Source: Candidatus Omnitrophota bacterium
Lineage (GTDB): Bacteria > Omnitrophota > Gorgyraeia > Aquiviventales > Aquiviventaceae
Direction: 5' to 3'
Length of the DNA stretch: 64,000 bases
Assembly (NCBI GenBank): GCA_016180575.1
Contig: JACPAY010000004.1
Location: forward strand, 58,883 to 122,882
The notes under the pieces are model-generated. The model worked only from the letters and a program-made list of their open reading frames with translations. It was not told the DNA's origin and ran no database searches. Positions within the stretch are counted from its first letter, which is position 1. Every line of letters begins with the position of its first letter. Shown here one piece after another: positions 2,130-35,257 of the stretch. A program made the translations under genes and the position numbers.

Positions 2130-4097
2130 GGCGGCAAGCGGCTTGCTCTGCCGGCTGCCGCCCGGCGTTGCCGTGTGGCTGGGCGAGCGGCTCGGCCTCC
2201 TCGCCTGTTGGCTCCAGCCCAAGCGCACCACCATCGGCCTTGCGAACCTGCGCGCCGCGTTCGATGGCCACATGAGCCCCGCGCAGGCGCGCCGGCTCAT
2301 CCGTGATTGCTACCGGCAGCTGGGTGCTGGCATCATCGAGATGCTGCGGCTGCCCGCCATCGACCGGGCGTATGTGGACCGCTATGTGACCGTTGAGGGG
2401 CGAGCCCATTTCGACGAGGCGGTCGCCTCCGGGCGTCCGGTCATCTTCCTCACGGGACACTACGGCAACTGGGAGCTCTCGTCCATCACCGCGGCCCTGC
2501 ACGGCTACCCCATCGTCGCGCTGGCGCGCGCGCAGCAGCGGCTGCCCCGCCTGTACCGGCTGCTCGTCTCCTACCGGGAGTCCAAGGGCTGCACGATCGT
2601 CCATAAGGGCGGGGCGATGAAGCGGCTGATCGCCGCGCTGGGGCAGGGGCGGCTCATCGGGATCGTCGGGGATCAGGCCAGCCGCCAGGGCATCTTCGTC
2701 GACTTCTTCGGCCGCCCGGCGCTGTTCGCGACCGGGCCGTTTGAGCTGGCGTATGGGAAGGGCGCGGTGATCCTGCCGGCGTTCATGCACCGGGTCCGTG
2801 GGCCGTTCCATCGCCTCGTCATCGAGCCGCCCATCTCATTCTCCGGCAAGCCGCCGAAGGAGACGGCGGTGCGGGAGGGCATCGAGTATTTCGCCGGCGC
2901 CCTCGCCGCGCACATCCGGCAGGAGCCGAGCCAATGGCTGTGGATGCACAAGCGGTGGAAGCACACGCCCGCCCGGCGGGTCCTCGTGCTGAGCGACGGC
3001 AAGCTCGGCCACCTCAAGCAGTCGCTGGCGGTCGTTGACGCCTTCCGGGATCGCCACCCCGACCTGCGCGCCGAGGTCATCGACGTCCGCTACCGGCATC
3101 CGCTCGCGAGGATGGTGACGCTGCTCTGGGCCTGGTGGCTGCCGCGGGGCCTGGGCGGCTCCCGATGCCTCCAGTGGGCGCTCCACCCGGAGACCGCCGC
3201 GGCGCTCCTCGCGCGCTACGCCGATCTCATCGTCTCGTGCGGCGCCTCGCCCGCGCCGGTGAACCTGCTCTGGGCCGCCGAGAACCGGGCGCACGCCGTC
3301 GCGGTCATGAACCCAGCACCCCTGCCGCTTGGCCGGTTTGCCCTCGTCATGGTCCCGCGCCACGACAGGCTCCGCCGCCGGCCGAACGTCGTGGAGACCG
3401 TCGGCGCCCTCGTGGCCCGGCTGCCCGAGGAATCGCTCCGGGCGGCGGGGGAGCGGCTCCGGGCGCATCCCGGCTTTCGCGGCGGCCCCGCGGGAGGTCC
3501 GACGGTCGCGGTGTTCATCGGCGGGGACAGCGCGCACTACGCGCTCAGCGCGGCATTCGCCGAATCGCTCATCCGGCAGGTCCTCGCGGCGTGCGACGGC
3601 GCAGACGGCTCGTGCCTCGTGACCACCTCGCGGCGCACGTCCCCGGCGGTTGAGCGCGCGCTCGCCGAACAGCTGAACCGCTCAAGCCGCTGCGGCCTCC
3701 TGCTCCTCGCCAGCCGCGATCAATTGGACGGCACCATGGAAGGGCTGATGGGTGCCGCGGATGTCGCCGTCGTCACCGGCGAGAGCATCTCGATGGTGTC
3801 GGAGGTCTGCGCAAGCGGCCGCCGGATCGTGGTGCCGGCGAGAGCATCTCGATGGTGTCGGAGGTCTGCGCAAGCGGCCGCCGGATCGTGGTGATCGAGC
3901 CGGAGCTCCGCGGCCGCGCGGCCACGCTGACGAAGCATGAACGGTTCCTGCAGAGCCTCGCGCAGGAGGGCTACGCGCGGCTGGTCCCGCTCCCGGAGCT
4001 GGGACTGGCGATCGAGCGCGCGCTCAAGCGTCCGCCGTCAGGCAAGCGGCTGGAGACCTTCGAGCGCCTCCGCGAGGCGGTGGGGAAGCTCGCCTGA
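2098..4097 (+). pseudogene. LpxL/HtrB-family lipid A late acyltransferase fused to an ELM1/DUF1022 domain, with the frame broken near the 3' end by a 59-bp tandem duplication
   Basis: The N-terminal half (MLDWLAC...GHYGNWE...) looks like a lysophospholipid/LpxL acyltransferase. The C-terminal half (RRVLVLSDGKLGHLKQS...TSRRTSP...GESISMVSEVCASG) looks like ELM1. The ORF stops at 3894 right after the duplicated unit. ORF 3852-4097 then continues the same protein (MVSEVCASGRRIVVIEPEL...). Confidence 0.7.
3776..3893. repeat. perfect tandem duplication, 2 x 59 bp
   Basis: 3776-3834 is identical to 3835-3893 (ccggcgagagcatctcgatggtgtcggaggtctgcgcaagcggccgccggatcgtggtg). 59 is not a multiple of 3. 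Confidence 0.95.
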
Positions 4098-6205
4098 TGC
4101 ACGTCCTGCAGCTGGTCCCGACGCTTGAGGTCGGCGGCGTGGAGCGCGGGGTGCTCGACCTCGCCAAAGGGCTCATCGCGAGGGGCCACCGCGTCAGCGT
4201 GGTGTCGGCGGGCGGCTCGCTGGTCGGGCGGCTGACGGCGCTCGGGGCAGCCCACCATCAGCTGCCCGTGCACCAGAAGTCGCTCGCCGGCATCGCGGCG
4301 TGCATCCCGGCCGTGACGCAGCTGATCCGCGAGACGGAGGCGGACCTCGTGCATGCGCGCTCGCGCATCCCCGCCTGGATCGGCTGGGCGGCCGCCCGGC
4401 GCGCCCAGCGGCCGTTCCTCACCACCGCCCACGGGTTCTACAAGCCGCATCCCGGCTCGCGCGTCATGGTGTGGGGGCGCCTCGTCATCGCGCCCTCGGA
4501 GGCGCTCGGGCACTACCTGGTGGAGCGATTCCGGCTGCCCCGGACGCGGCTGCGCGTGATCCCGCGCGGCGTGGACCTGGAGGAGTTCGCGTTTCAGCCG
4601 CCGGCCGCCCGCCAGGGGCCATGGCGCCTCGGGCTCTTCGGGCGCCTGAGCCCGCTCAAGGGGCAGGAGGTGGCGCTGCGCGCGTGCGCCCGCCTCATCC
4701 GCCAGGGCCTGCCGGTGACGCTGTGCCTCGCCGGCGGCGCGCCGGGGCTGCCTGCCCGCCAGGCGCTGGAGCGGCTCATCGCCGCGTTGAAACTGGAGGA
4801 CCACGTGGAGTGGCTGGGCCTCCAGCAGGACATGCCCGCCTGCATCGCGTCGGTGGACGTCGTGCTCGCGCCATCCACCTATCCTGAGTCGTTCGGCCGC
4901 AGCGCCCTCGAGGCGCAGGCGGTGGGGCGGCCGGTCATCGCCTCGCGCGCGGGGGCGCTGGCGGAGCTGATCCAGGATGGGGAAAACGGCCTGCTGGTGC
5001 CGCCGCGGGACCCCGAGGCGCTCGCCCTCGCCATCGAGCGGCTGGTGAACGACCCGGCGCTGCGCGCGCGATGCGTCGAACACGCCCGCCGCCGCGTGGA
5101 AGCGGAGTGGCCGCTCGAGCGGATGGTGGAGCGGACGCTGGCGGTCTATGACGAATGCCTGACCCGGCCGCGGATCCTGATCTGGAAGCTGAGCGCGCTG
5201 GGCGACGTCGTCCTGTCCACGCCGAGCCTCCGGGCGATCCGCCGCCAGTTCCCGTCGGCGCGCCTCACGCTGGCCGTCGGGCGCTCGGCCTATGAAGCGG
5301 TCGCCCGATGCCCGTATCTCGACGACATCCTCATCGATCAGCCGCGGCGCCGGCCGCAACGCGTTCGGCGCGACCTCGGCTTGCGGCGGCGTCTGCGGGA
5401 GGGGGCGTTCGACCTCTCCATCGACCTGCAGAACAGCCGCCGCACGCACCTCTTGGCCTGGTGGGCCGGCATCCCGGTGCGGATCGGCTACCGCCGGAAG
5501 CTCGGCTGGCTGCTGAACCGCGGGGTGCGCCTGCCGCGCGTGGTGCTGGCGCCCGTCGCGCACCAGCACTACCTCCTGCGGCAGGCGGGCATCGCGCCGG
5601 ACGGCGACACACTCGAGCTGTGGCCCTCGCCGGCGGATGAGGCGCGGGCCGATGCGCTGATCCGGCCGACCGGGCCTGAATTCATGCGTCTCGTCGGCAT
5701 GCATCCGGGCGGCAGCGGGCGATGGCAGACGAAGCGATGGGAGCTCACCCGATGGGCCCGCGTGTGCGACGCGCTGGCCCAGCGGGGGGTCCGCGTCGTC
5801 GTGACAGGCGGACCGGACGAGCGGCCGCTGGGCGAGGAGCTCCGCCGGCTCACCACGAGCGGCTCGCCCCACCTCTTGATCGGGAAGACCAGCCTGATGG
5901 AGCTGGCCTGCGTCATCAGGCGCTGCCAGATCTTCCTGGCGCATGATTCCTCCGCCCTGCACCTCGCCGCCGCGGTCGGGACCCCGACGATCGCGCTGTT
6001 CGGCCCGACCGATCCACGCCGCCACCTGCCGCCGACATTCACGGGGCGCGTCATCAAGAAGGACGTCTTCTGCAGCCCCTGCTACTCCCCGCGCTGCCGG
6101 ACGATCACGCATGCGTGCATGGACCGCATCGGCGTCGAGGAGGTGCTCAGCGCCGTCTGGGGGCTGCTCGCCGAGACCGACCGGCCCGCCGCGCCGTTAG
6201 CCTAG
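4097..6205 (+). CDS. fusion protein: GT4 glycosyltransferase (N-terminal) plus GT9 heptosyltransferase-like domain (C-terminal)
   Basis: The N-terminal part (MHVLQLVPTLEVGGVERGV...) ends with a GT4 EX7E-type region (ESFGRSALEAQAVGRPVIAS). From about aa 345, RILIWKLSALGDVVLSTPSLRAIR...GGPDE...HDSSALHLAAAVGTPTIALFGPT is GT9-like. Confidence 0.85.
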   Translation: MHVLQLVPTLEVGGVERGVLDLAKGLIARGHRVSVVSAGGSLVGRLTALGAAHHQLPVHQKSLAGIAACIPAVTQLIRETEADLVHARSRIPAWIGWAAARRAQRPFLTTAHGFYKPHPGSRVMVWGRLVIAPSEALGHYLVERFRLPRTRLRVIPRGVDLEEFAFQPPAARQGPWRLGLFGRLSPLKGQEVALRACARLIRQGLPVTLCLAGGAPGLPARQALERLIAALKLEDHVEWLGLQQDMPACIASVDVVLAPSTYPESFGRSALEAQAVGRPVIASRAGALAELIQDGENGLLVPPRDPEALALAIERLVNDPALRARCVEHARRRVEAEWPLERMVERTLAVYDECLTRPRILIWKLSALGDVVLSTPSLRAIRRQFPSARLTLAVGRSAYEAVARCPYLDDILIDQPRRRPQRVRRDLGLRRRLREGAFDLSIDLQNSRRTHLLAWWAGIPVRIGYRRKLGWLLNRGVRLPRVVLAPVAHQHYLLRQAGIAPDGDTLELWPSPADEARADALIRPTGPEFMRLVGMHPGGSGRWQTKRWELTRWARVCDALAQRGVRVVVTGGPDERPLGEELRRLTTSGSPHLLIGKTSLMELACVIRRCQIFLAHDSSALHLAAAVGTPTIALFGPTDPRRHLPPTFTGRVIKKDVFCSPCYSPRCRTITHACMDRIGVEEVLSAVWGLLAETDRPAAPLA

Positions 6206-7337: not shown

Positions 7338-8407
7338 TGGACCGCATCCTGGTGGTGCTGCCGAACTGGTTCGGGGAGACCCTCTTCGCGACGCCGTTCC
7401 TGCGCGAGCTCCGCCGGCAGCGGCCCGATGCCTGGGTGGCGACGCTCGGCTGGCCGCAGTGCCGCGAGGTGCTGCTGCACAACCCCCATGTCCAGGAGCG
7501 GCTCGACTACGATGAGCGGGGCGCCCACCGCGGCCTCCTCGCGAAGTGGCGGCTCATCGAGGCGCTGCGCTGGCGACGGTTCGACACCGCCTTCATCCTG
7601 CGCCGGAGCCTCTCCCGTTCGCTGCTGCTTGTGCTGGCGCGCATCCCGGCGCGGGTCGGGTTTGCCAACCCGAAGAGCGGGTGGCTGCTGACCCAAGCGG
7701 TGCCGTCGCCGGCGGCGCCGTCCTCAGGACGGCGTCCCGAGCCAGGTCGAGGGACGCCGGCCCACAAGGCGGTCATCTACCTGCGGCTGCTCGACGCCGT
7801 CGGGCTCTCGGGGGGCGACGCGGGCGGGTTCGACTACACGGTGGCGGAGGTGGAACGCCAGGCGGCGCGCGTGCTGCTGAGCGACGTCACGGCCGGCGGC
7901 GAGCCGCTGGTCATCCTCCATCCCGGCGCCAACTGGGCCCACAAGCGCTGGGCGCCAGAGCGCTTCGCCGCGCTGGGCGACCGCCTGGCCGCGGAGCGGG
8001 GCGCGCGCATCGCCATCACCGGCGGCCCTGGGGACCGCGCGCTCGCGGAGGACATCCAGCGCCGGATGAGCCAGCCAGTGTCCGTGCTCGCAGGCCACAC
8101 GGGCCTGCGCGAGCTGGCCGCCTGCCTGGAGCAGGCGCAGCTCGTCGTGGCCAACGATACGGGCGTGCTGCACATCGCTGCAGCGCTCGGGCGGCCCCTG
8201 CTGGCGCTCTACGGCCCCACCTCACCATTGCTCACCGGGCCGCTCGGGCATGCGGAGCGCACCGTCGTGCTGCACCACCCGGACTGCTGCCCCGAGGTCC
8301 CGTGCTACCGGCCGGGGCCGGCGGGCCCCGCGCATCCCGGCATGGACGCGATCACGGTGGACGAAGCCTATGCCGCCGCCGTTCAACTCTTGGACCAACA
8401 TGGCTGA
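7334..8407 (+). CDS. GT9 ADP-heptose:LPS heptosyltransferase-like protein
   Basis: MMDRILVVLPNWFGETLFATPFLRELR... and NDTGVLHIAAALGRPLLALYGPT are GT9-like. The start overlaps the previous stop (ATGA). The upstream part of ORF 7031-8407 overlaps the GT4 gene and is not used. Confidence 0.8.
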   Translation: MMDRILVVLPNWFGETLFATPFLRELRRQRPDAWVATLGWPQCREVLLHNPHVQERLDYDERGAHRGLLAKWRLIEALRWRRFDTAFILRRSLSRSLLLVLARIPARVGFANPKSGWLLTQAVPSPAAPSSGRRPEPGRGTPAHKAVIYLRLLDAVGLSGGDAGGFDYTVAEVERQAARVLLSDVTAGGEPLVILHPGANWAHKRWAPERFAALGDRLAAERGARIAITGGPGDRALAEDIQRRMSQPVSVLAGHTGLRELAACLEQAQLVVANDTGVLHIAAALGRPLLALYGPTSPLLTGPLGHAERTVVLHHPDCCPEVPCYRPGPAGPAHPGMDAITVDEAYAAAVQLLDQHG

Positions 8408-9395
8408 GCCGCAGCGTGTCCTGCTCATCGGCCCCTCCAATATCGGCGATGCGATCCTGGCCGCCGGCGCGCTCCACGCGCTCGCATCCCGGTATCCTCA
8501 GGCGCACCTGACGCTCGTCGTCGGGGAGCGGGCGAAGGCGCTGTTCGCGGAGGATCCCCGCGTCCACACGCTGGTGGACGCCGACCGGTTTAGCTCGCCG
8601 CTCGGGCGGCTGCGGCTTGCCGTCGCGCTCTGGCGCTACCATCCCCATGTGGTGGTGGACCTGCGGCACACGCTCTACCCGCTGCTGCTCAAACCGCTCC
8701 GGGCCTGGCGCTATTTCCGGCGTCCCCCGCGGGGGATCGTCCACATGCGCGACCGGCACCTCTGGACGCTCCGCGCGCAGCTCGCCGGCATCCCCGCGCA
8801 CGAGAGCCCGGTCTGGTGGAGCGCCAAGGATGCCGCGCACGTGGAGGCGTTGTGGCGGCGCTGGAAGCTCGACGGCGCCCCGCGCCTCGTGGTCATCTGT
8901 CCTGGGGCGCGGAGCCACATCAAGCGCTGGCTTCAGGAGGGCTTCGCGCGCGTCGCCGACCGGCTCATCGCCGAAGCCGGCGCCCAGGTGGTGTTCTGCG
9001 GCGAGCCGGACGAGAAGCCCGTCATCGACGAGGTCCTGGGGCTGATGCGCCACCGGGCGCTGAGCGCGGTGGGGGTGACGACCATCCGGCAGCTCGGGGC
9101 GCTGATGCGGCGCGCGCGGCTCGTCATCACCAACGACTCCGCGTCCCTCCACCTCGCCTCCGCCCTGGATGTTCCGACGCTCGCCCTCTTCGGCCCGACG
9201 GACGCCGGCAAGTACGGCCCGACCGCGGCTCATCACCGCACGATCCGCCGCCGCCTCTTCTGCGCGCCGTGCGAGCGCGCGCTGTGCCGGTTCAGCCACG
9301 AGTGCATGCGCTTCATCGGCGCGAATGAAGTGTTCGACGCGGCGGTGACGCTCCTGAGACAGGAGACAGGGGACAGGAGACAGGAGGGGGTGTAA
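8400..9395 (+). CDS. GT9 heptosyltransferase-like protein
   Basis: MAEPQRVLLIGPSNIGDAILAAGALHAL... and NDSASLHLASALDVPTLALFGPT are GT9-like. The C-terminal tail LLRQETGDRRQEGV is encoded by GAGACAG heptamer repeats. Confidence 0.8.
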   Translation: MAEPQRVLLIGPSNIGDAILAAGALHALASRYPQAHLTLVVGERAKALFAEDPRVHTLVDADRFSSPLGRLRLAVALWRYHPHVVVDLRHTLYPLLLKPLRAWRYFRRPPRGIVHMRDRHLWTLRAQLAGIPAHESPVWWSAKDAAHVEALWRRWKLDGAPRLVVICPGARSHIKRWLQEGFARVADRLIAEAGAQVVFCGEPDEKPVIDEVLGLMRHRALSAVGVTTIRQLGALMRRARLVITNDSASLHLASALDVPTLALFGPTDAGKYGPTAAHHRTIRRRLFCAPCERALCRFSHECMRFIGANEVFDAAVTLLRQETGDRRQEGV

Positions 9396-9427
9396 CGACA
9401 TGTCTCATGTCTCATGTCTCATGTCTC
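9356..9427. repeat. opposed heptamer arrays: (GAGACAG)x4 at 9356-9383 and (ATGTCTC)x4 at 9400-9427
   Basis: Read directly from the sequence. The third left unit is GGGACAG. The right array is the reverse complement of the left one except for one base per unit. A 16-nt loop between them carries AGGAGG (9382-9387) and the upstream stop TAA (9393-9395). Confidence 0.9.
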
Positions 9428-10467
9428 CACCGCTTGCTCCGAAGCGGATCCTGGTCATCCGGCTCGACCGGTTGGGGGATGTCGTGCTCTCCACGCCGGT
9501 CCTCCGGGCGCTGCGCGAGCGCTTCCCGCACGCCTTCATCGCCATGCTGGTGCGCCCGCCATGCCGGGACGCCGTGGACGGCCACCCGGCGCTCAACGAG
9601 GTCATCAGCTACGACAAGGAAAGCACCCATCGCGGCCTCCTGGCCACGGTCCGCTTCGCGCGCTCACTGCGCCGGCAGGAGTTCGACACGGCGCTCATCC
9701 TCCATCCGAGCAACCGCTCGCACTGGATTCCCTGGCTCGCCGGCATCCCCGTCCGGATCGGCTACGACCGCAAGTGCGGATGGCTGCTGACCCACCGCCT
9801 CCCGCACCGGAAGCAGGAAGGCGCCAAGCACGAAGCGCTCTACACCCTCGAGCTCCTGGCGCCGCTGGGGATCAGCCCGTCGGATCCGCGGCCCGCGGTG
9901 CCGGTGCGTCCGGACGCTGTCGAGCGGGTCGAGGCACTCCTGACGGCGTCCGCGGTCGGGCCGCAGGAGCGGCTTGTGGCGGTCCACCCCTCGGCGAGCT
10001 GCGTCTCGAAACGGTGGATGCCGGAGCGGTTCGCCGAGGTGGCGGATCGGCTCATCGCTGAGCAGGGGGTCCGGGTGTGTCTCGTGGCGGGGGAGCCTGA
10101 TGCGGGCCACGCGCAGGAGGTCGCGCGGGCCATGCGCCAGCCGGCGCTCAACTTCGCCGGCCGCTTAAGCGTGGCGGAGCTCATCGCGCTGCTTCGCCGC
10201 TGCCGGCTCCTCCTCTCCAACGACTCCGGGCCGGTGCATCTGGCGGCGGCGGTCGGGACGCCCGTCGTGGACATCTTCGGGCGCAATCAAGCCGGGCTCT
10301 CCCCGCAGCGGTGGGGGCCGCTGGGGGAGCTCCACATCGTGCTCCACAAAGAGGTGGGGTGCGTGACGTGCCTGGCGCATAACTGCGACATCGGCTTCCT
10401 CTGCCTGACCTCGTTGAGCGCCGATGAGGTGTATCGCGCCGTGGTCAGCGTCTTGGAGCGTGGATAA
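9400..10467 (+). CDS. GT9 heptosyltransferase-like protein
   Basis: KRILVIRLDRLGDVVLSTPVLRALRERFP... and NDSGPVHLAAAVGTPVVDIFG are GT9-like. ATGs at 9400 and 9421 are in frame. ATGs at 9407 and 9414 open the other two frames. Confidence 0.8.
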   Translation: MSHVSCLMSPPLAPKRILVIRLDRLGDVVLSTPVLRALRERFPHAFIAMLVRPPCRDAVDGHPALNEVISYDKESTHRGLLATVRFARSLRRQEFDTALILHPSNRSHWIPWLAGIPVRIGYDRKCGWLLTHRLPHRKQEGAKHEALYTLELLAPLGISPSDPRPAVPVRPDAVERVEALLTASAVGPQERLVAVHPSASCVSKRWMPERFAEVADRLIAEQGVRVCLVAGEPDAGHAQEVARAMRQPALNFAGRLSVAELIALLRRCRLLLSNDSGPVHLAAAVGTPVVDIFGRNQAGLSPQRWGPLGELHIVLHKEVGCVTCLAHNCDIGFLCLTSLSADEVYRAVVSVLERG

Positions 10468-31353: not shown

Positions 31354-32651
31354 GCGTGCGGGTGCGCTTCGCCCCCAGCCCGACCGGCAAGCTCCACGTG
31401 GGGTCCGCGCGGACCGCGCTCTTCAACTGGCTCTTCGCCAGGCACCACCGCGGGGCGTTTGTCCTGCGCATCGAGGACACCGACCAGAAGCGCTCCAACC
31501 CCGCGTTCCTCCAGGACATCTACGCGAGCCTCGCCTTCCTCGGTATCGTCGCGGAGGAGGGGCCGATCTTCCAGAGCAAGCGCCTGGCGCTCTACCAGGA
31601 GCACGCGCGGCGGCTGCTGCAGGCGGGAGCGGCCGCGGAGCATGAGGGCGCGGTCGTCTTTTCCGTCAGCCCCCAGGCCGTCACCTTCACGGACCTCCTG
31701 CACGGCGACATCACCGTGGACACGACGCTCTTTGAGTCGCTCGTCCTCATGAAGTCCGACGGCACGCCGACCTACAACTTCGCCTGCGTGGTGGACGATG
31801 CGCTCATGCAGATCTCTCATGTCATCCGGGGGGACGACCACATCGCCAACACCCCCAAGCAGGTGCTCCTCTACCGGGCGCTGGGCTTTGCGCTGCCCGT
31901 CTTCGCGCACATCCCGCTCATCGTCGGGGTGGACCGCGCGCGGCTCTCCAAGCGGTTCGGGGCCACGTCGGTGGACGAGTACCGGCAGGTCGGGTACCTG
32001 CCTGATGCGTTCGTGAATTATCTCGTGCTGCTCGGCTGGTCGCCGGGCGGCAACCGGGAGCTGATCGCCGGCCAGGAGCTGATCGACGCGTTTGACCTCT
32101 CGAAGGTGCGCAAGACCGCCGCCCAGTTCGACCAGCGCAAGCTCGACTGGCTCAACGGCCAGTACCTCAAGCGCACACCATTGCCGCGCCTGGCGGAGCT
32201 GCTCGCGGAGCGGCTCAAGGCCAAAGGGTGGCTGGCCGCTGACCATGACCTGGACTGGCTGGCGCGCGTCGCGGCGCTCCTGCAGGACCGGCTCCGGGTG
32301 CTGGAGGACATCGAGGACCAGCACGCCTTCTTCTTCCGGGAGCCGCCGGACTACGAGGAGGAGGCGGTCGCAAAATACCTGCGGGGAGACGGCGTCGCGG
32401 AGCGGCTGCTCGAGCTGCGGGAGCGCCTCAGCCGGATGAGCTCGTTCGACGCGCCCGCCATCGAGGCGGCCGCCCGCGCGCTCGTCGCCGAGCGGCAGCT
32501 CGCCTCGAAGGACCTCATCCATCCCGCGCGCGTGGCGGTCACCGGCCGCGAGGTGAGCCCCCCGCTCTTCGAGACGATGGCGGTCCTCGGCAAGGCGAAA
32601 GTCCTCAGCCGCCTCGAGCATGCCGCCACGGCGCTTTCGCGGAAACCCTGA
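31350..32651 (+). CDS. gltX: glutamate--tRNA ligase
   Basis: VRFAPSPTGKLHVGSARTAL (HIGH region) and LSKRFG (KMSKS-like) are present. The start overlaps the dxs stop. Confidence 0.93.
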   Translation: MSVRVRFAPSPTGKLHVGSARTALFNWLFARHHRGAFVLRIEDTDQKRSNPAFLQDIYASLAFLGIVAEEGPIFQSKRLALYQEHARRLLQAGAAAEHEGAVVFSVSPQAVTFTDLLHGDITVDTTLFESLVLMKSDGTPTYNFACVVDDALMQISHVIRGDDHIANTPKQVLLYRALGFALPVFAHIPLIVGVDRARLSKRFGATSVDEYRQVGYLPDAFVNYLVLLGWSPGGNRELIAGQELIDAFDLSKVRKTAAQFDQRKLDWLNGQYLKRTPLPRLAELLAERLKAKGWLAADHDLDWLARVAALLQDRLRVLEDIEDQHAFFFREPPDYEEEAVAKYLRGDGVAERLLELRERLSRMSSFDAPAIEAAARALVAERQLASKDLIHPARVAVTGREVSPPLFETMAVLGKAKVLSRLEHAATALSRKP

Positions 32652-32653
32652 CG

Positions 32654-33001
32654 ATGCAGGAGCAGCGCCGGCACATCCGGGTCACCACCCCGGTCATGAT
32701 CGAGTTCCCGAACCCCGAGACGATGAAGACCGAGCGCAGCTTCAGCGTCAACGTCAGCGAGACCGGCCTGCGGTTCCCGACGCCGGTGCGGTTGACGGTG
32801 GGCCACGGGATCCCGCTGACGCTCGCGCTGCCCTTCCACAACACGCCGATGCACGCCACCGGGGAGGTCCTCTGGATCCGCGAGATCTCCCGCCTGGGCG
32901 CCCCGCAGTACGAGGTGGGGGTGCGGTTCCAGTGGATTGACGACCCCGACCGCCAGCGCCTGGCGCACCACCTCGCCACCTTCTTCCCCGGCCGCGCATG
33001 A
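32654..33001 (+). CDS. PilZ domain protein
   Basis: Carries QRRHIR and NVSETGL motifs. Confidence 0.75.
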   Translation: MQEQRRHIRVTTPVMIEFPNPETMKTERSFSVNVSETGLRFPTPVRLTVGHGIPLTLALPFHNTPMHATGEVLWIREISRLGAPQYEVGVRFQWIDDPDRQRLAHHLATFFPGRA

Positions 33002-33041
33002 TATAATCGCCAGTTGAGGAGATCCGATAGAGGTAAGTGGA

Positions 33042-33099
33042 GTCACAAAGTCACAGGGTCACAAAGTCACATGTGACGTGTGACCTTGTGACATGTGAC
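33042..33099. repeat. array of 4 x GTCACA followed by 4 x TGTGAC (about 8-bp periodicity), an imperfect cruciform
   Basis: The sequence reads GTCACAaaGTCACAggGTCACAaaGTCACA|TGTGACgTGTGACctTGTGACaTGTGAC. Confidence 0.9.
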
Positions 33100-33122
33100 C
33101 CCGCCCTCTTTCGACAGTGCGA

Positions 33123-33146
33123 TGGCGGATGGTGTAACGGCAGTAC
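33123..33146 (+). other. orphan copy of the tRNA-Gln 5' acceptor strand plus D-arm
   Basis: 33123-33143 is identical to 33295-33315. The next 3 nt match at 2 of 3 positions. No remaining tRNA body follows. Confidence 0.85.
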
Positions 33147-33294
33147 CTCGACTCGGTCGCCTTCGGCTCCCTCGCTCGGTACAAATTCCGAGCGAGCAAG
33201 GCGAGTCGAGGAAAGGCACAGCCGATAGCGGCCGAGGCGAGGTATCCCGAGCGAGCCCATTCGGATGGCTGGTGGGCGAGTCGAGGGACACAGT

Positions 33295-33368
33295 TGGCGG
33301 ATGGTGTAACGGCAGCACAGCAGATTCTGGATCTGCTTGTCTAGGTTCGAATCCTAGTCCGCCAGCCA
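33295..33368 (+). tRNA. tRNA-Gln (anticodon CUG)
   Basis: The hand-folded cloverleaf has acceptor TGGCGGA/TCCGCCA, anticodon stem GCAGA/TCTGC with loop TTCTGGA, T arm CTAGG-TTCGAAT-CCTAG, and encoded CCA. The U1:A72 pair and G73 discriminator fit Gln identity. Confidence 0.9.
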
Positions 33369-33553
33369 TTTCCTTCGCTCGAAATACGCCCTCCATCCAC
33401 TAATAGGCTCTGGTGACGGCGCGATCACCAGGGCTTCGCGTATCTCACTTATCCTAAAGAGTTAGGGCGATCAGTTCGCTCGCCTGGCGTGCCCTGAACC
33501 TCTCTTCTCCCAGTTGACGCTTCCTCTGGTTGCCCACCAGCCAAAAGATATCC

Positions 33554-33585
33554 TTGACTCTCCAGTTGGCTGGATGGTTTATACT
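33554..33585 (+). promoter_or_regulatory. MerR-type promoter with long spacer and dyad operator, leaderless
   Basis: TTGACT (33554-33559) and TATACT (33580-33585) are separated by a 20-bp spacer. The spacer contains the dyad TCCAG-ttgg-CTGGA (33561-33574). The ATG (33592) starts 6 nt after the -10. Confidence 0.6.
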
Positions 33586-33591
33586 GAAAAC

Positions 33592-34023
33592 ATGATGAAC
33601 CCAACCTTCATTGGAGCCTTGGCAAAGCAAGCCGGTGTCCCGATCAAGACGATCCGGTATTACGAGGATGTCGGGTTGCTGCCGAAGGTGACGCGGACGG
33701 TGGCGGGGTACCGGCTGTATGCGCCTGACGCCGTGGATCGGCTGCAGTTCATCAAGAAAGCGCAGAGCCTGGGACTGCGGCTTGAGCACATCAAGGAAAT
33801 CTTGGAGTTGGCGGATCGGGGCCGCTGTCCCTGCGGGCATGTTCAGCGGCTCTTGAAAGCGCGTCTTGGGGAGCTCCGGGAGAAGATGGCGGCCATGCGG
33901 ACGTTGGAGCAGCGGTTGAAGGCGGCCACAGCGCGCGGCTGTCCGCCGAACTTCCGGCCACGCGGCAAGGCGATCTGTCCGACGATCCAACGGCAACCGC
34001 CCGTGAGGCGCAGGGTGAGATGA
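33592..34023 (+). CDS. MerR-family metal-responsive transcriptional regulator
   Basis: The HTH is IGALAKQAGVPIKTIRYYEDVGLL. Cys residues fall at positions 79, 81, 117 and 129 of the protein, similar to the spacing in Hg-binding MerR. Confidence 0.85.
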   Translation: MMNPTFIGALAKQAGVPIKTIRYYEDVGLLPKVTRTVAGYRLYAPDAVDRLQFIKKAQSLGLRLEHIKEILELADRGRCPCGHVQRLLKARLGELREKMAAMRTLEQRLKAATARGCPPNFRPRGKAICPTIQRQPPVRRRVR

Positions 34024-34679
34024 GCGCGACGCATGTGCTGGAGAAGTACGAGGCCATGGCTGCGGGATACGACCGCCGGTGGCGGCGGTATCACGCGGAG
34101 ACGTTTGGTCGAGCCGTGCACGACATCCAGAGCGATCGTCCCCTGTCGATCCTCGACGCCCCATGCGGCACCGGCGAGCTCATACGTTGGCTCTTGCCCA
34201 AGGTGCCGAAGGCCCGCATCGTTGGTGTGGATGGCTCGGACGCCATGCTGAACATCGCCCGCCAGAAGTGGGCGGGTGAACCCCGAGTGGGTTTCCAGCA
34301 CGGCCTGGCCGATGCCTTGCCGTTTGGTGAGCAGACCTTCGATTGGGTGTTCTGCTGCAGCAGCCTCCACTACTTCCGGCAGCCAGAGCGCATGCTGGCG
34401 GAGTTTGCCCGGGTGCTCAAGCCCACGGGGCGGCTGTTCCTCCTCGACTGGTGCCGCAACCCCTGGCATTGCCGGGTCCTCAATTGGTGGAAAGCCCGCC
34501 ACGATCCGGCGCATGTGCGGATGTACACCACACAGGAACTCGAACAGCTGTTGCGGGACACCGGCTGGTCGGTCCCGCAGGTGGAGCGCTTCCGGGTCAG
34601 TTGGATGCGTGGCCTGCGGCTGTGGGAGATGATGGAAGCCGTTGCCACACGCAGCAACGGACGGAAGGACTCACGATGA
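34020..34679 (+). CDS. class I SAM-dependent methyltransferase
   Basis: Motif I is ILDAPCGTGEL, followed by the post-I/II/III pattern (FDWVFCCSSLHYF...LKPTGRLFLLDW). It has 4-nt overlaps with both neighbours. Confidence 0.8.
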   Translation: MSATHVLEKYEAMAAGYDRRWRRYHAETFGRAVHDIQSDRPLSILDAPCGTGELIRWLLPKVPKARIVGVDGSDAMLNIARQKWAGEPRVGFQHGLADALPFGEQTFDWVFCCSSLHYFRQPERMLAEFARVLKPTGRLFLLDWCRNPWHCRVLNWWKARHDPAHVRMYTTQELEQLLRDTGWSVPQVERFRVSWMRGLRLWEMMEAVATRSNGRKDSR

Positions 34680-35257
34680 AAGCCGCTCGGCTGGGGATTC
34701 TGTCCGCCATCACGGCCTCGGTGTGCTGTTTGGGACCGGTGCTCTTGGTGGTCTTGGGCCTCGGGAGTCTTGGCTTTGGGGCGCTCATCGGCCGCTACCA
34801 CTGGTGGTTCATCGGCGCCGCCATCACGCTGTTGATCTATGCCTGGCGCAGCTACGTGAAGGAAGCACGACACTGCAAGGCGGCCTCGTGCGAGATGGCC
34901 CGAGGGAAGACAACCCGGACGGTGTTACTGCTGGCTTCCGTGGTCGTGGCTGTCTTTGTCGGGCTGAACCTCTACACCTACGCGAGCCAGTCGTCCAACA
35001 CCAAGCCGCAGGCAGCGTCCTCGGCCCAGGCGCACGTGGCCTCCGTCATGATCCCCGTGGAGGGCATGACGTGTTTCACCTGCGAGCTGACGGTCGAGTC
35101 CAGCGTGAAGGGCCTGCCGGGGGTGCGCAGCGTGGATGCGAGGGTCACGGAGTCCGCGGCCTATGTGCAGTATGACCCGGCCCAGGTCACGGTGGACGCT
35201 GTGGTGGTGGCCATCAACAAAACTGGGTATCACGCCACCCCACCGAGGGAACGATGA
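34676..35257 (+). CDS. MerT-like membrane transporter fused to an HMA (MerP/CopZ-like) domain
   Basis: TM1 carries a vicinal Cys pair (ITASVCCLGPVLL). The C-terminal domain has GMTCFTCE (MxCxxC) and a ferredoxin-like HMA pattern. Confidence 0.7.
   Translation: MKAARLGILSAITASVCCLGPVLLVVLGLGSLGFGALIGRYHWWFIGAAITLLIYAWRSYVKEARHCKAASCEMARGKTTRTVLLLASVVVAVFVGLNLYTYASQSSNTKPQAASSAQAHVASVMIPVEGMTCFTCELTVESSVKGLPGVRSVDARVTESAAYVQYDPAQVTVDAVVVAINKTGYHATPPRER

Follow-up and report, generated by a model that had tools for sequence, protein, structure and literature searches.

Opposed heptamer arrays forming a hairpin between two GT9 genes of a high-GC Omnitrophota bacterium, and the junction repeats of its clade

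At the junction of two adjacent glycosyltransferase genes of the GT9 (heptosyltransferase) family, a bacterium of the Omnitrophota carries two short arrays of tandem heptamers facing each other (positions 9356-9427), raising the question of whether such an arrangement is a device controlling the downstream gene or a tolerated product of slipped-strand replication. The stretch analysed, hereafter the window, comprises 64 kb of a high-GC Omnitrophota metagenome-assembled genome (MAG), with a G+C content of about 63-73%. The reading favoured here, with a probability of about 0.55, is that the element is a convergent pair of heptamer arrays born from slippage, which forms a hairpin at the junction of genes that were already coupled and probably has little regulatory consequence. 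As such, the arrays are most likely tolerated, near-neutral passengers rather than an evolved switch. Beyond this single junction, the element is a local example of a class of repeats abundant at gene boundaries throughout the high-GC Omnitrophota clade.

The census set encompassed 480 kb, namely the window together with 71 related loci (L001 and following) taken around the orthologous gene, 20 from genomes and 51 from metagenomes, and the junction between the two GT9 genes was read in every genome and metagenome locus fetched. The metagenome scan gave no contig of the same species as the window, the best matches being 85-86% identical at the protein level. Tandem arrays of the window were called with Tandem Repeats Finder (TRF), and the array census retained those of at least 2.8 copies. 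Gene calling based on the G+C content of third codon positions proved unreliable in lower-GC loci, L062 being for instance mis-stranded; therefore, only statistics of proximity to stop codons are relied upon, and gene-orientation classes were used only for the first 20 loci.

A hairpin spanning the junction of two GT9 genes

The left, 5' array (9356-9383) is made of four units on the forward strand, i.e., GAGACAG (9356-9362), GAGACAG (9363-9369), the variant GGGACAG (9370-9376) and GAGACAG (9377-9383). It is followed by a 16-nt spacer, GAGGGGGTGTAACGAC (9384-9399), and then by the right, 3' array (9400-9427), a perfect fourfold repeat of ATGTCTC. By TRF, both arrays have a period of 7, with 4.4 copies and 91% match for the left one and 4.1 copies and 100% match for the right one, and an inverted-repeat search recovers 27-nt arms, 85% complementary and 18 nt apart. 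Sequence, TRF and inverted-repeat search thus agree with the first-pass annotation of this DNA, where opposed arrays were described as forming a long hairpin between the two genes. With a purine content of 87% in the left arm and 28% in the right arm, the pair has a convergent handedness, the purine-rich arm lying 5'.

The predicted stem is composed of four 6-bp blocks separated from each other by a single G.A mismatch, where the GGGACAG variant pairs by means of a G.U. In the minimum free energy structures of both RNA and single-stranded DNA (ssDNA), it is prolonged by an outer 7-bp helix between GGCGGUG (9341-9347) and CACCGCU (9428-9434), for a total of 31 pairs (24+7), this outer helix being conserved neither in L002 nor in L001. 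The fold of region 9340-9440 had been put forward as the check to be made, and it beats shuffled controls in both nucleic acids: as RNA it reaches -47.3 kcal/mol versus -34.6 +/- 3.2 for dinucleotide shuffles (z = -4.0), the 72-nt core alone attaining z = -8.0 against mononucleotide shuffles, and as ssDNA it reaches -27.5 kcal/mol (z = -5.1), with none of 200 shuffles as stable. No terminator-like site is present in 8800-10000, the hairpin being followed by CCACCGCUUGCUCC with no U tract, and no promoter is predicted at the junction. In Rfam 15, the hairpin has no match at the gathering score and only sub-threshold look-alikes of miRNA precursors, at 19-23 bits versus cut-offs of 60-100.

The upstream GT9 gene (8400-9395, forward strand; Pfam PF01075, E = 1e-29) holds the left array within its last 40 nt, its product ending in the tail ...LLRQETGDRRQEGV*. 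The array was initially taken for the last 28 nt of this gene, which needs correction since the open reading frame (ORF) goes on for 12 nt, down to a TAA stop codon (9393-9395) that lies in the loop and precedes the first AUG by 4 nt. Of the two elements said to occupy the loop, the stop codon is indeed there, whereas the Shine-Dalgarno (SD)-like AGGAGG (9382-9387), 12 nt before AUG 9400, begins in the left arm and runs into the loop; in the centroid structure of RNA 9340-9440, this motif is unpaired.

The downstream GT9 gene (9400-10467, forward strand), delimited by its ORF and a protein match, encodes 355 aa from ATG 9400 or 348 aa from ATG 9421. Its product is 100% identical to an NCBI protein from a "Candidatus Omnitrophica bacterium" MAG, a lipopolysaccharide (LPS) heptosyltransferase II, for which the NCBI annotation (P0001, 348 aa) starts at the fourth ATG. 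As reported at first, the four ATGs of the right array spread over all three frames: those at 9400 and 9421 share the frame of the gene, and those at 9407 and 9414 open ORFs of 127 aa and 215 aa, respectively, in the other two. The product of the fourth ATG, MSPPLAPKRIL, resembles the start of an array-free orthologue, MNPPPAPRRIL; among the four, only ATG 9400 has an SD-like sequence upstream. Once ribosomes have terminated at UAA 9393-9395, the most likely site of renewed initiation is AUG 9400. The hairpin accounts for the conflicting starts (9400 or 9421) that gene callers assign to this GT9, just as heptamer arrays explain the odd N-terminal extensions of many orthologues, where translated heptamers of other sequences appear as peptides such as SAIRNPQ, SAFRTPH, or SAVSRQP.

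Orthologous junctions and the putative seeds of the arrays

Opposed heptamer arrays with differing units are found at roughly half of the orthologous GT9|GT9 junctions, namely in L001 (5' GAGACAT, 3' TGTCTCA), L002/L057 (GAGACAG, ACGYCTC), L005 (AGGTGAA, CCTTTCA), L008 and L022 (GGGGCGN, CCTCGCC), L009 (GGCTCGG, CCCGAGC), L018 (CGGTGTA, CCGTACA), L028, L034 (TTGGAAG, CTTCCAA), L054 (GTGCGGA, TCCGCAC), L055 (GGGTGAA, TTCACCC), and L062 (5' GGGCGGA, facing a degenerate array complementary only in part). At the same junction, L014 and L026/L027 exhibit arrays that are perfect yet non-complementary. An ATG within the repeat unit is peculiar to the locus at 9356-9427 and to L001, the units elsewhere being devoid of it. 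Array-free junctions are numerous and display ATGA or TGATG overlaps. The nearest relatives by the GT9 tree are all array-free, L073 (87% aa identity) and P0002 (88%) having an ATGA overlap and L072 (85%) an unrelated 157-nt GC-rich insert. In the more distant L002/L057 (77% aa identity), the 4+4 arrays are homologous to those of the window unit by unit, including the GGGACAG third unit; their arms have diverged and fold no better than shuffles (z from -0.2 to -0.6), the arrays being still present.

The array-free orthologues also point to where the two arrays came from. Their upstream proteins end in ...LLRQERVAS* (L013) or ...LLRQGAAR* (L004), where the tail in the window reads LLRQ-ETGDRRQ-EGV*, and their downstream proteins start with MNPPPAPRRIL, MERLAPAPKRI, or MSPSPKR. 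Single-copy seeds are thus visible on either side, as ...LLRQE/G... near the end of the upstream protein and M-S/N-P-P... at the beginning of the downstream one, and the removal of 21 nt from each array restores a conventional junction. The seed of the left array would be the LRQ codons cTGAGACAGgag (cTG AGA CAG) at the 3' end of the upstream GT9, and that of the right array the ancestral start-codon heptamer ATGTCTC (ATG TCT C) of the downstream GT9. Complementary by chance, these two seeds would each have grown by three units through slipped-strand replication (+21 nt, keeping the frame). The C-terminal tail of the upstream protein would thereby have gained 7 aa, and the downstream gene three additional AUGs ahead of its original one. 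The arms are internally homogeneous but differ at one of seven positions (GAGACAG versus the complement GAGACAT), and this fixed difference between uniform arms argues that each expanded from its own seed instead of one being copied from the other; judging from the sequences, we infer separate expansions. Of note, the perfect complement of the right arm, GAGACAT, creates a TGA in tandem, which is where the upstream gene of L001 ends.

From the geometry of the junction, the arms could form a 24+7-bp interrupted hairpin on the polycistronic mRNA as well as on ssDNA, with the stop codon and, in part, the SD sequence in the loop. Ribosomes translating the upstream GT9 would unzip the left arm and terminate at UAA 9393-9395. 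Initiation of the downstream GT9 would follow at AUG 9400, 4 nt beyond this stop and 12 nt after AGGAGG. Such a process would be ordinary termination-reinitiation coupling, the same as array-free relatives manage via an ATGA overlap.

Several other structured sequences were observed at these junctions. A mini-hairpin of about 43 nt (TCCGCCACAC..CATGGCGGATCCGCCAATC..TTGGCGGAC) lies inside an AATCCGC heptamer array at the GT9 junction of L026/L027 (2940-2985) and L017 (3077-3130), its 18-nt core being found in 3 of 73 loci; it presumably resembles small dispersed repeats found inserted in the heptamer arrays of Nostoc. The GC-rich insert of L072 (2844-3000) is palindromic and belongs with inserts at the same GT9|GT9 junction in L024 (2885-3000) and L015 (5925-6030), each about 110-157 nt in length and sharing the ends GGCGGGTCCT..GCCG, with GTCACCCGCC also common to L015 and L024. 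The GT9|GT9 junction looks like a hotspot for small structured inserts. Besides, the same hairpin element (98% identical, with equal copy numbers) occurs in L005 (1-170) and L031 (560-745), where it is followed by different GT9 paralogues; the breakpoint falls directly after the 3' arm, which recombination of paralogous GT9 genes at their conserved 5' ends could explain.

Heptamer arrays across the lineage and in other bacteria

In the census set, 120 of the 161 tandem arrays have a period of 7; four copies are the commonest number (67/128 arrays) and 30-31 nt the commonest length. These 128 arrays represent 89 distinct canonical units, certain of which recur across genomes, e.g., the TCCGCAN family. 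Adjacent arrays make up 35 pairs, most of which are complementary and fold with z <= -4, and a reverse-complement partner scoring above the 99th percentile of random 30-mers is present within 130 nt for 53 of 114 arrays. Respective to genes, 42 of 80 elements overlap a called stop codon or come within 30 nt of one, compared with 7.2 +/- 2.6 upon random placement. Handedness is pronounced, the 5' arm being purine-rich in 31 of the 35 pairs (p = 3e-6) and G-skewed in 29. The window itself holds a second element with opposed arrays, in an intergenic position (33041-33100), where four units of (A/G)GTCACA(AA/GG) with a period of 8 abut four units of TGTGAC(N1-2) with a period of 7-8; with a PilZ-like ORF ending 40 nt before it and a tRNA (33295-33365) beginning 195 nt after it, this element folds as RNA at -48 kcal/mol (z = -7.9), none of 200 shuffles being as good. 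These are the only two such elements in the window and their units are unrelated, which speaks for no genome-wide consensus unit. Larger assemblies also exist: in L012 (= L051), a 530-nt intergenic stretch (5373-5902) harbours seven arrays built from six different heptamers, one of which has 12 copies of GAAGGTG and is paired with TTCTACC, and a separate 20-copy GTCGCTT array lies at 9973-10111.

Some simple accounts of this pattern were tried and discarded. Left arms do not behave as SD mimics, their complementarity to the anti-SD being -6.1 versus -8.0 kcal/mol for composition-matched shuffles and being only slightly above that of random 30-mers. The 3' arm is not a better-preserved "primary" array (percent match 83.6 versus 86.9, p = 0.19), and unpaired arrays are not pyrimidine-rich on the sense strand (28 purine-rich versus 30 pyrimidine-rich). 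Handedness was also considered as an effect of the direction of transcription, for which L071 (881-963), located between two minus-strand genes, was checked; because an inverted repeat reads alike on both strands, handedness is intrinsic rather than an effect of transcription or replication direction. As for the four-unit mode, the preservation of the frame at 3n+1 copies fits the locus at 9356-9427 but cannot explain intergenic arrays or the identical mode in Xanthomonas.

Comparable arrangements are known in distant bacteria. The genomes of Xanthomonas campestris and X. axonopodis contain heptameric simple sequence repeats (SSRs) of the type (GGGAATC)n with a four-unit mode, amounting to 70-75 pairs per genome, where the pairs "always" comprise one array per strand in convergent orientation, with stem-loop potential and unknown function (Rehm et al., 2015; PMC4692102). 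They are mostly intergenic and lie between the same genes in related species, with varying length and sequence (PMC4692102). Unit length, four units and the pairing of convergent arrays are all as in the Omnitrophota, and the convergent orientation in Xanthomonas reads as G-rich arm first, as in 29-31 of the 35 pairs here. In contrast, Xanthomonas has one genome-wide consensus unit with G-quadruplex potential, whereas the 89 units of the 128 arrays are for the most part unable to form G-quadruplexes, and the arms often overlap the 3' and 5' ends of flanking ORFs, the unit at the present locus even holding the start codon. In Geobacter metallireducens, four or five tandem units of 7-8 nt, "mostly found in pairs" on opposite strands at variable distance, occur at dozens of sites (Aklujkar et al., 2009; PMC2700814); with consensus units GTTGCTYN, MTYCTGA, and GGACCGG, they were interpreted as binding sites for global regulators (PMC2700814). 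Again, tandem units are paired on opposite strands, but no consensus unit is found in the Omnitrophota. Length of the unit, number of copies, pairing and handedness are those of the Xanthomonas/Geobacter kind, from which the element differs by the lack of a consensus unit, a probable origin in situ from coding sequence at both gene ends, and a start codon in the unit.

Other known heptamer arrays are less alike. As related in two later papers (PMC4679880; PMC4692102), Mrazek et al. (2007) found heptanucleotides to be over-represented among the long SSRs of many bacteria, mainly outside reading frames, and proposed polymerase slippage with a footprint of about 7 nt as the cause; the dominance of period 7 is shared, though complementary pairing with a fixed handedness is not general there. 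In Nostoc, only few convergent heptamer pairs are reported (PMC4692102). Marine Beggiatoaceae possess TAACTGA arrays of 2-6 units located just upstream of, or overlapping, gene starts and ends, for which a role in translation was suggested (MacGregor, 2015; PMC4679880), but these share one conserved unit, run in direct orientation apart from one reported inverted pair, and are not predicted to form secondary structure. A search for literature mentioning Omnitrophota together with tandem repeats, intergenic repeats or heptamers found none.

Weighing the explanations

The first-pass annotation saw in the junction a built-in coupling or occlusion device, the hairpin hiding the downstream starts so that output would come only after upstream ribosomes have melted the left arm; as an adaptive device, it would be maintained by selection. 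Hairpin and geometry stand: the left arm is part of the upstream ORF, the loop holds the stop codon and the stem all AUGs, so that the hairpin has to be opened by any ribosome that reaches the end of the upstream gene. The upstream stop is likewise in the loop at related junctions (L001 4842-4929, L002, L009 4904-4961 and 9749-9827, and L014 5900-5996), where the 5' arm is translated as a C-terminal tail; in L002, the ATGA stop/start overlap is itself in the loop, and the prevalence of complementary pairs with significant folds goes in the same direction. A device specific to this gene, on the contrary, is not supported, considering that the same architecture recurs with unrelated units at many other junctions of the lineage, and that the class extends to purely intergenic sites such as 33041-33100 before the tRNA. 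The energy needed to open the start at AUG 9400, computed with a thermodynamic model for the 30S landing site (-18 to +12), amounts to 14 kcal/mol, less than in a one-unit reconstruction (20) and within the range of four array-free orthologues (12-26), which lends no support to a special occlusion of the start codon; if the left arm is kept open, the right arm finds other pairing partners (9.6 kcal/mol), and the SD sequence is not sequestered in the predicted structure. The nearest relatives are already coupled by ATGA overlaps without arrays and coupling therefore predates the arrays. Pairing is neither conserved nor compensated among orthologues, as the homologous arms of L002/L057 have lost their fold, L014 and L026/L027 have non-complementary arrays at the same junction, and L073, P0002, and L072 are array-free. 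Nor is a structure specific to mRNA indicated, sense folds being no more stable than antisense ones (sense favoured in 13 pairs versus 22, p = 0.07 in the opposite direction). Altogether, an adaptive coupling or occlusion device appears unlikely.

Could the heptamers instead tune or switch the gene by their number, or have arrived as a ready-made element? In Haemophilus and Neisseria, contingency loci of LPS glycosyltransferases carry long tracts of many units, polymorphic between isolates. The present locus shares with them a repeat at the 5' end of an LPS-type glycosyltransferase and alternative starts in different frames; the SD-proximal AUG is in the gene frame only at 1, 4, or 7 copies (3n+1), were one left unit lost, the upstream ORF would run in the frame of the downstream gene with no stop between, enabling a fusion of the two GT9 ORFs, and unit changes spread across whole arms in relatives (GAGACAT in L001, ACGYCTC in L002) testify to homogenisation on evolutionary time scales. 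Unlike in those loci, however, there are four units only per arm, with a complementary partner array and no polymorphism seen. The expression tuned by slippage, as initially proposed, is conceivable from the sequence, yet no copy-number variation was seen in the loci compared: both the window and L002/L057 have 4+4 units despite 23% protein divergence, and six pairs of near-identical loci differ by single-nucleotide polymorphisms only, never by the number of units. In addition, copy number throughout the class is tightly peaked at 4 rather than broad and most arrays of the class lie at sites where the frame is irrelevant. A phase-variable contingency locus, whether switching or grading the enzyme, is thus very improbable. 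Hardly better placed is a dispersed hairpin element (similar to REP, REPIN, or miniature inverted-repeat transposable elements) inserted at the junction with its own stop, SD and start. The REP, BIME, and REPIN sequences of proteobacteria form families of hundreds of near-identical copies tied to RAYT transposases, with incidental or modest effects on mRNA; the imperfect palindrome, two inverted arms and intercistronic site in an operon are reminiscent of them, but the arms here are locus-specific tandem heptamers. Dispersal would agree with recurrences within a genome, e.g., in L008 (4851-4928 versus 5969-5998, 91% over 70 nt, and versus 1671-1700), L005 (1271 versus 2638, 88% over 94 nt), and L014 (2573 versus 5900), with the patchy phylogenetic distribution at the GT9|GT9 junction, with the other structured inserts there in L015, L024, and L072, and with units shared across genomes, such as the TCCGCAN family. 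It is at odds with both arms deriving from host coding sequence that is single-copy in array-free orthologues (LRQ codons, ATG-Ser start), with a unit that has no other copy in the window, all six unit-dimer matches falling inside the element, and with 89 units in 128 arrays devoid of a family consensus; neither terminal repeats nor target-site duplications are evident at the locus.

Slippage on already coupled genes remains the preferred explanation, and several observations weigh against it. Complementarity between adjacent arrays is far commoner than independent slippage predicts and, together with the strong bias in handedness (purine-rich arm 5' in 31/35 pairs, p = 3e-6), indicates that some directional process or selection acts beyond simple slippage. 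The sharp four-unit mode is not explained by slippage either. Homologous 4+4 arrays are shared by the window and L002/L057 at 77% GT9 identity with closer relatives being array-free, which entails either long persistence with multiple losses or transfer, and is uneasy with pure neutrality. Finally, the presence of the same array element at several junctions in other genomes suggests dispersal.

Some further features of the window are worth recording. The two GT9 genes belong to a run composed of a GT4-GT9 fusion, a GT4 gene and three GT9 genes, the fusion, which precedes the three stand-alone GT9 genes, corresponding to a single 702-aa ORF (4097-6205) that joins a GT4/GT1-type glycosyltransferase and a heptosyltransferase domain of the GT9 type. 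At the 3' end of an ORF ending at 3894, 59 bp are perfectly duplicated in tandem (3776-3893; 2.0 copies, 100% match). Its length not being divisible by 3, the duplication changes the C-terminus of that protein; either it is genuine or it arose during assembly. Around 32000-34000, where the tRNA sits, the G+C content falls from about 0.70 to about 0.63-0.65 and stays so to the end of the window, and the tRNA is followed by a MerR-like regulator and an ORF with a heavy-metal-associated domain (33514-35257); this segment of lower G+C may be an island integrated beside the tRNA. Further on, 61343-61393 matches the nhaA-I riboswitch of Rfam at 41.7 bits, for a gathering score of 37.

The arrays are probably of little practical consequence to the GT9 gene itself, and the interest of the locus lies mainly in the clade-wide pattern. 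The excess of heptamer SSRs has been known for decades, and convergent pairs were noted in Xanthomonas and Geobacter, without any accepted origin or function. It is tempting, albeit doubtful, to regard "4 x 7" convergent heptad hairpins as a distinct class of junction elements, actively generated or maintained, and shared by phyla as distant as those of Xanthomonas, Geobacter, and this Omnitrophota clade. If true, the fixed handedness with the purine/G-rich arm 5' on both strands, the four-unit size (about 30 nt per arm) and the turnover of sequence under a kept architecture would imply an unrecognised heptad-measuring process or a role at the RNA level at operon junctions. A candidate process would be fold-back synthesis after a G-rich nascent array, and candidate roles would be to keep C-rich stretches paired against Rho loading or to offer landing sites, with a footprint of about 7 nt, to OB-fold RNA chaperones. 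In any case, the clade provides a natural comparative series, where one and the same junction is found array-free, with complementary arrays (of at least eight units), with non-complementary arrays, or with decayed ones, and which could serve to test mutation versus selection as the source of the pairing, the handedness and the four-unit size.

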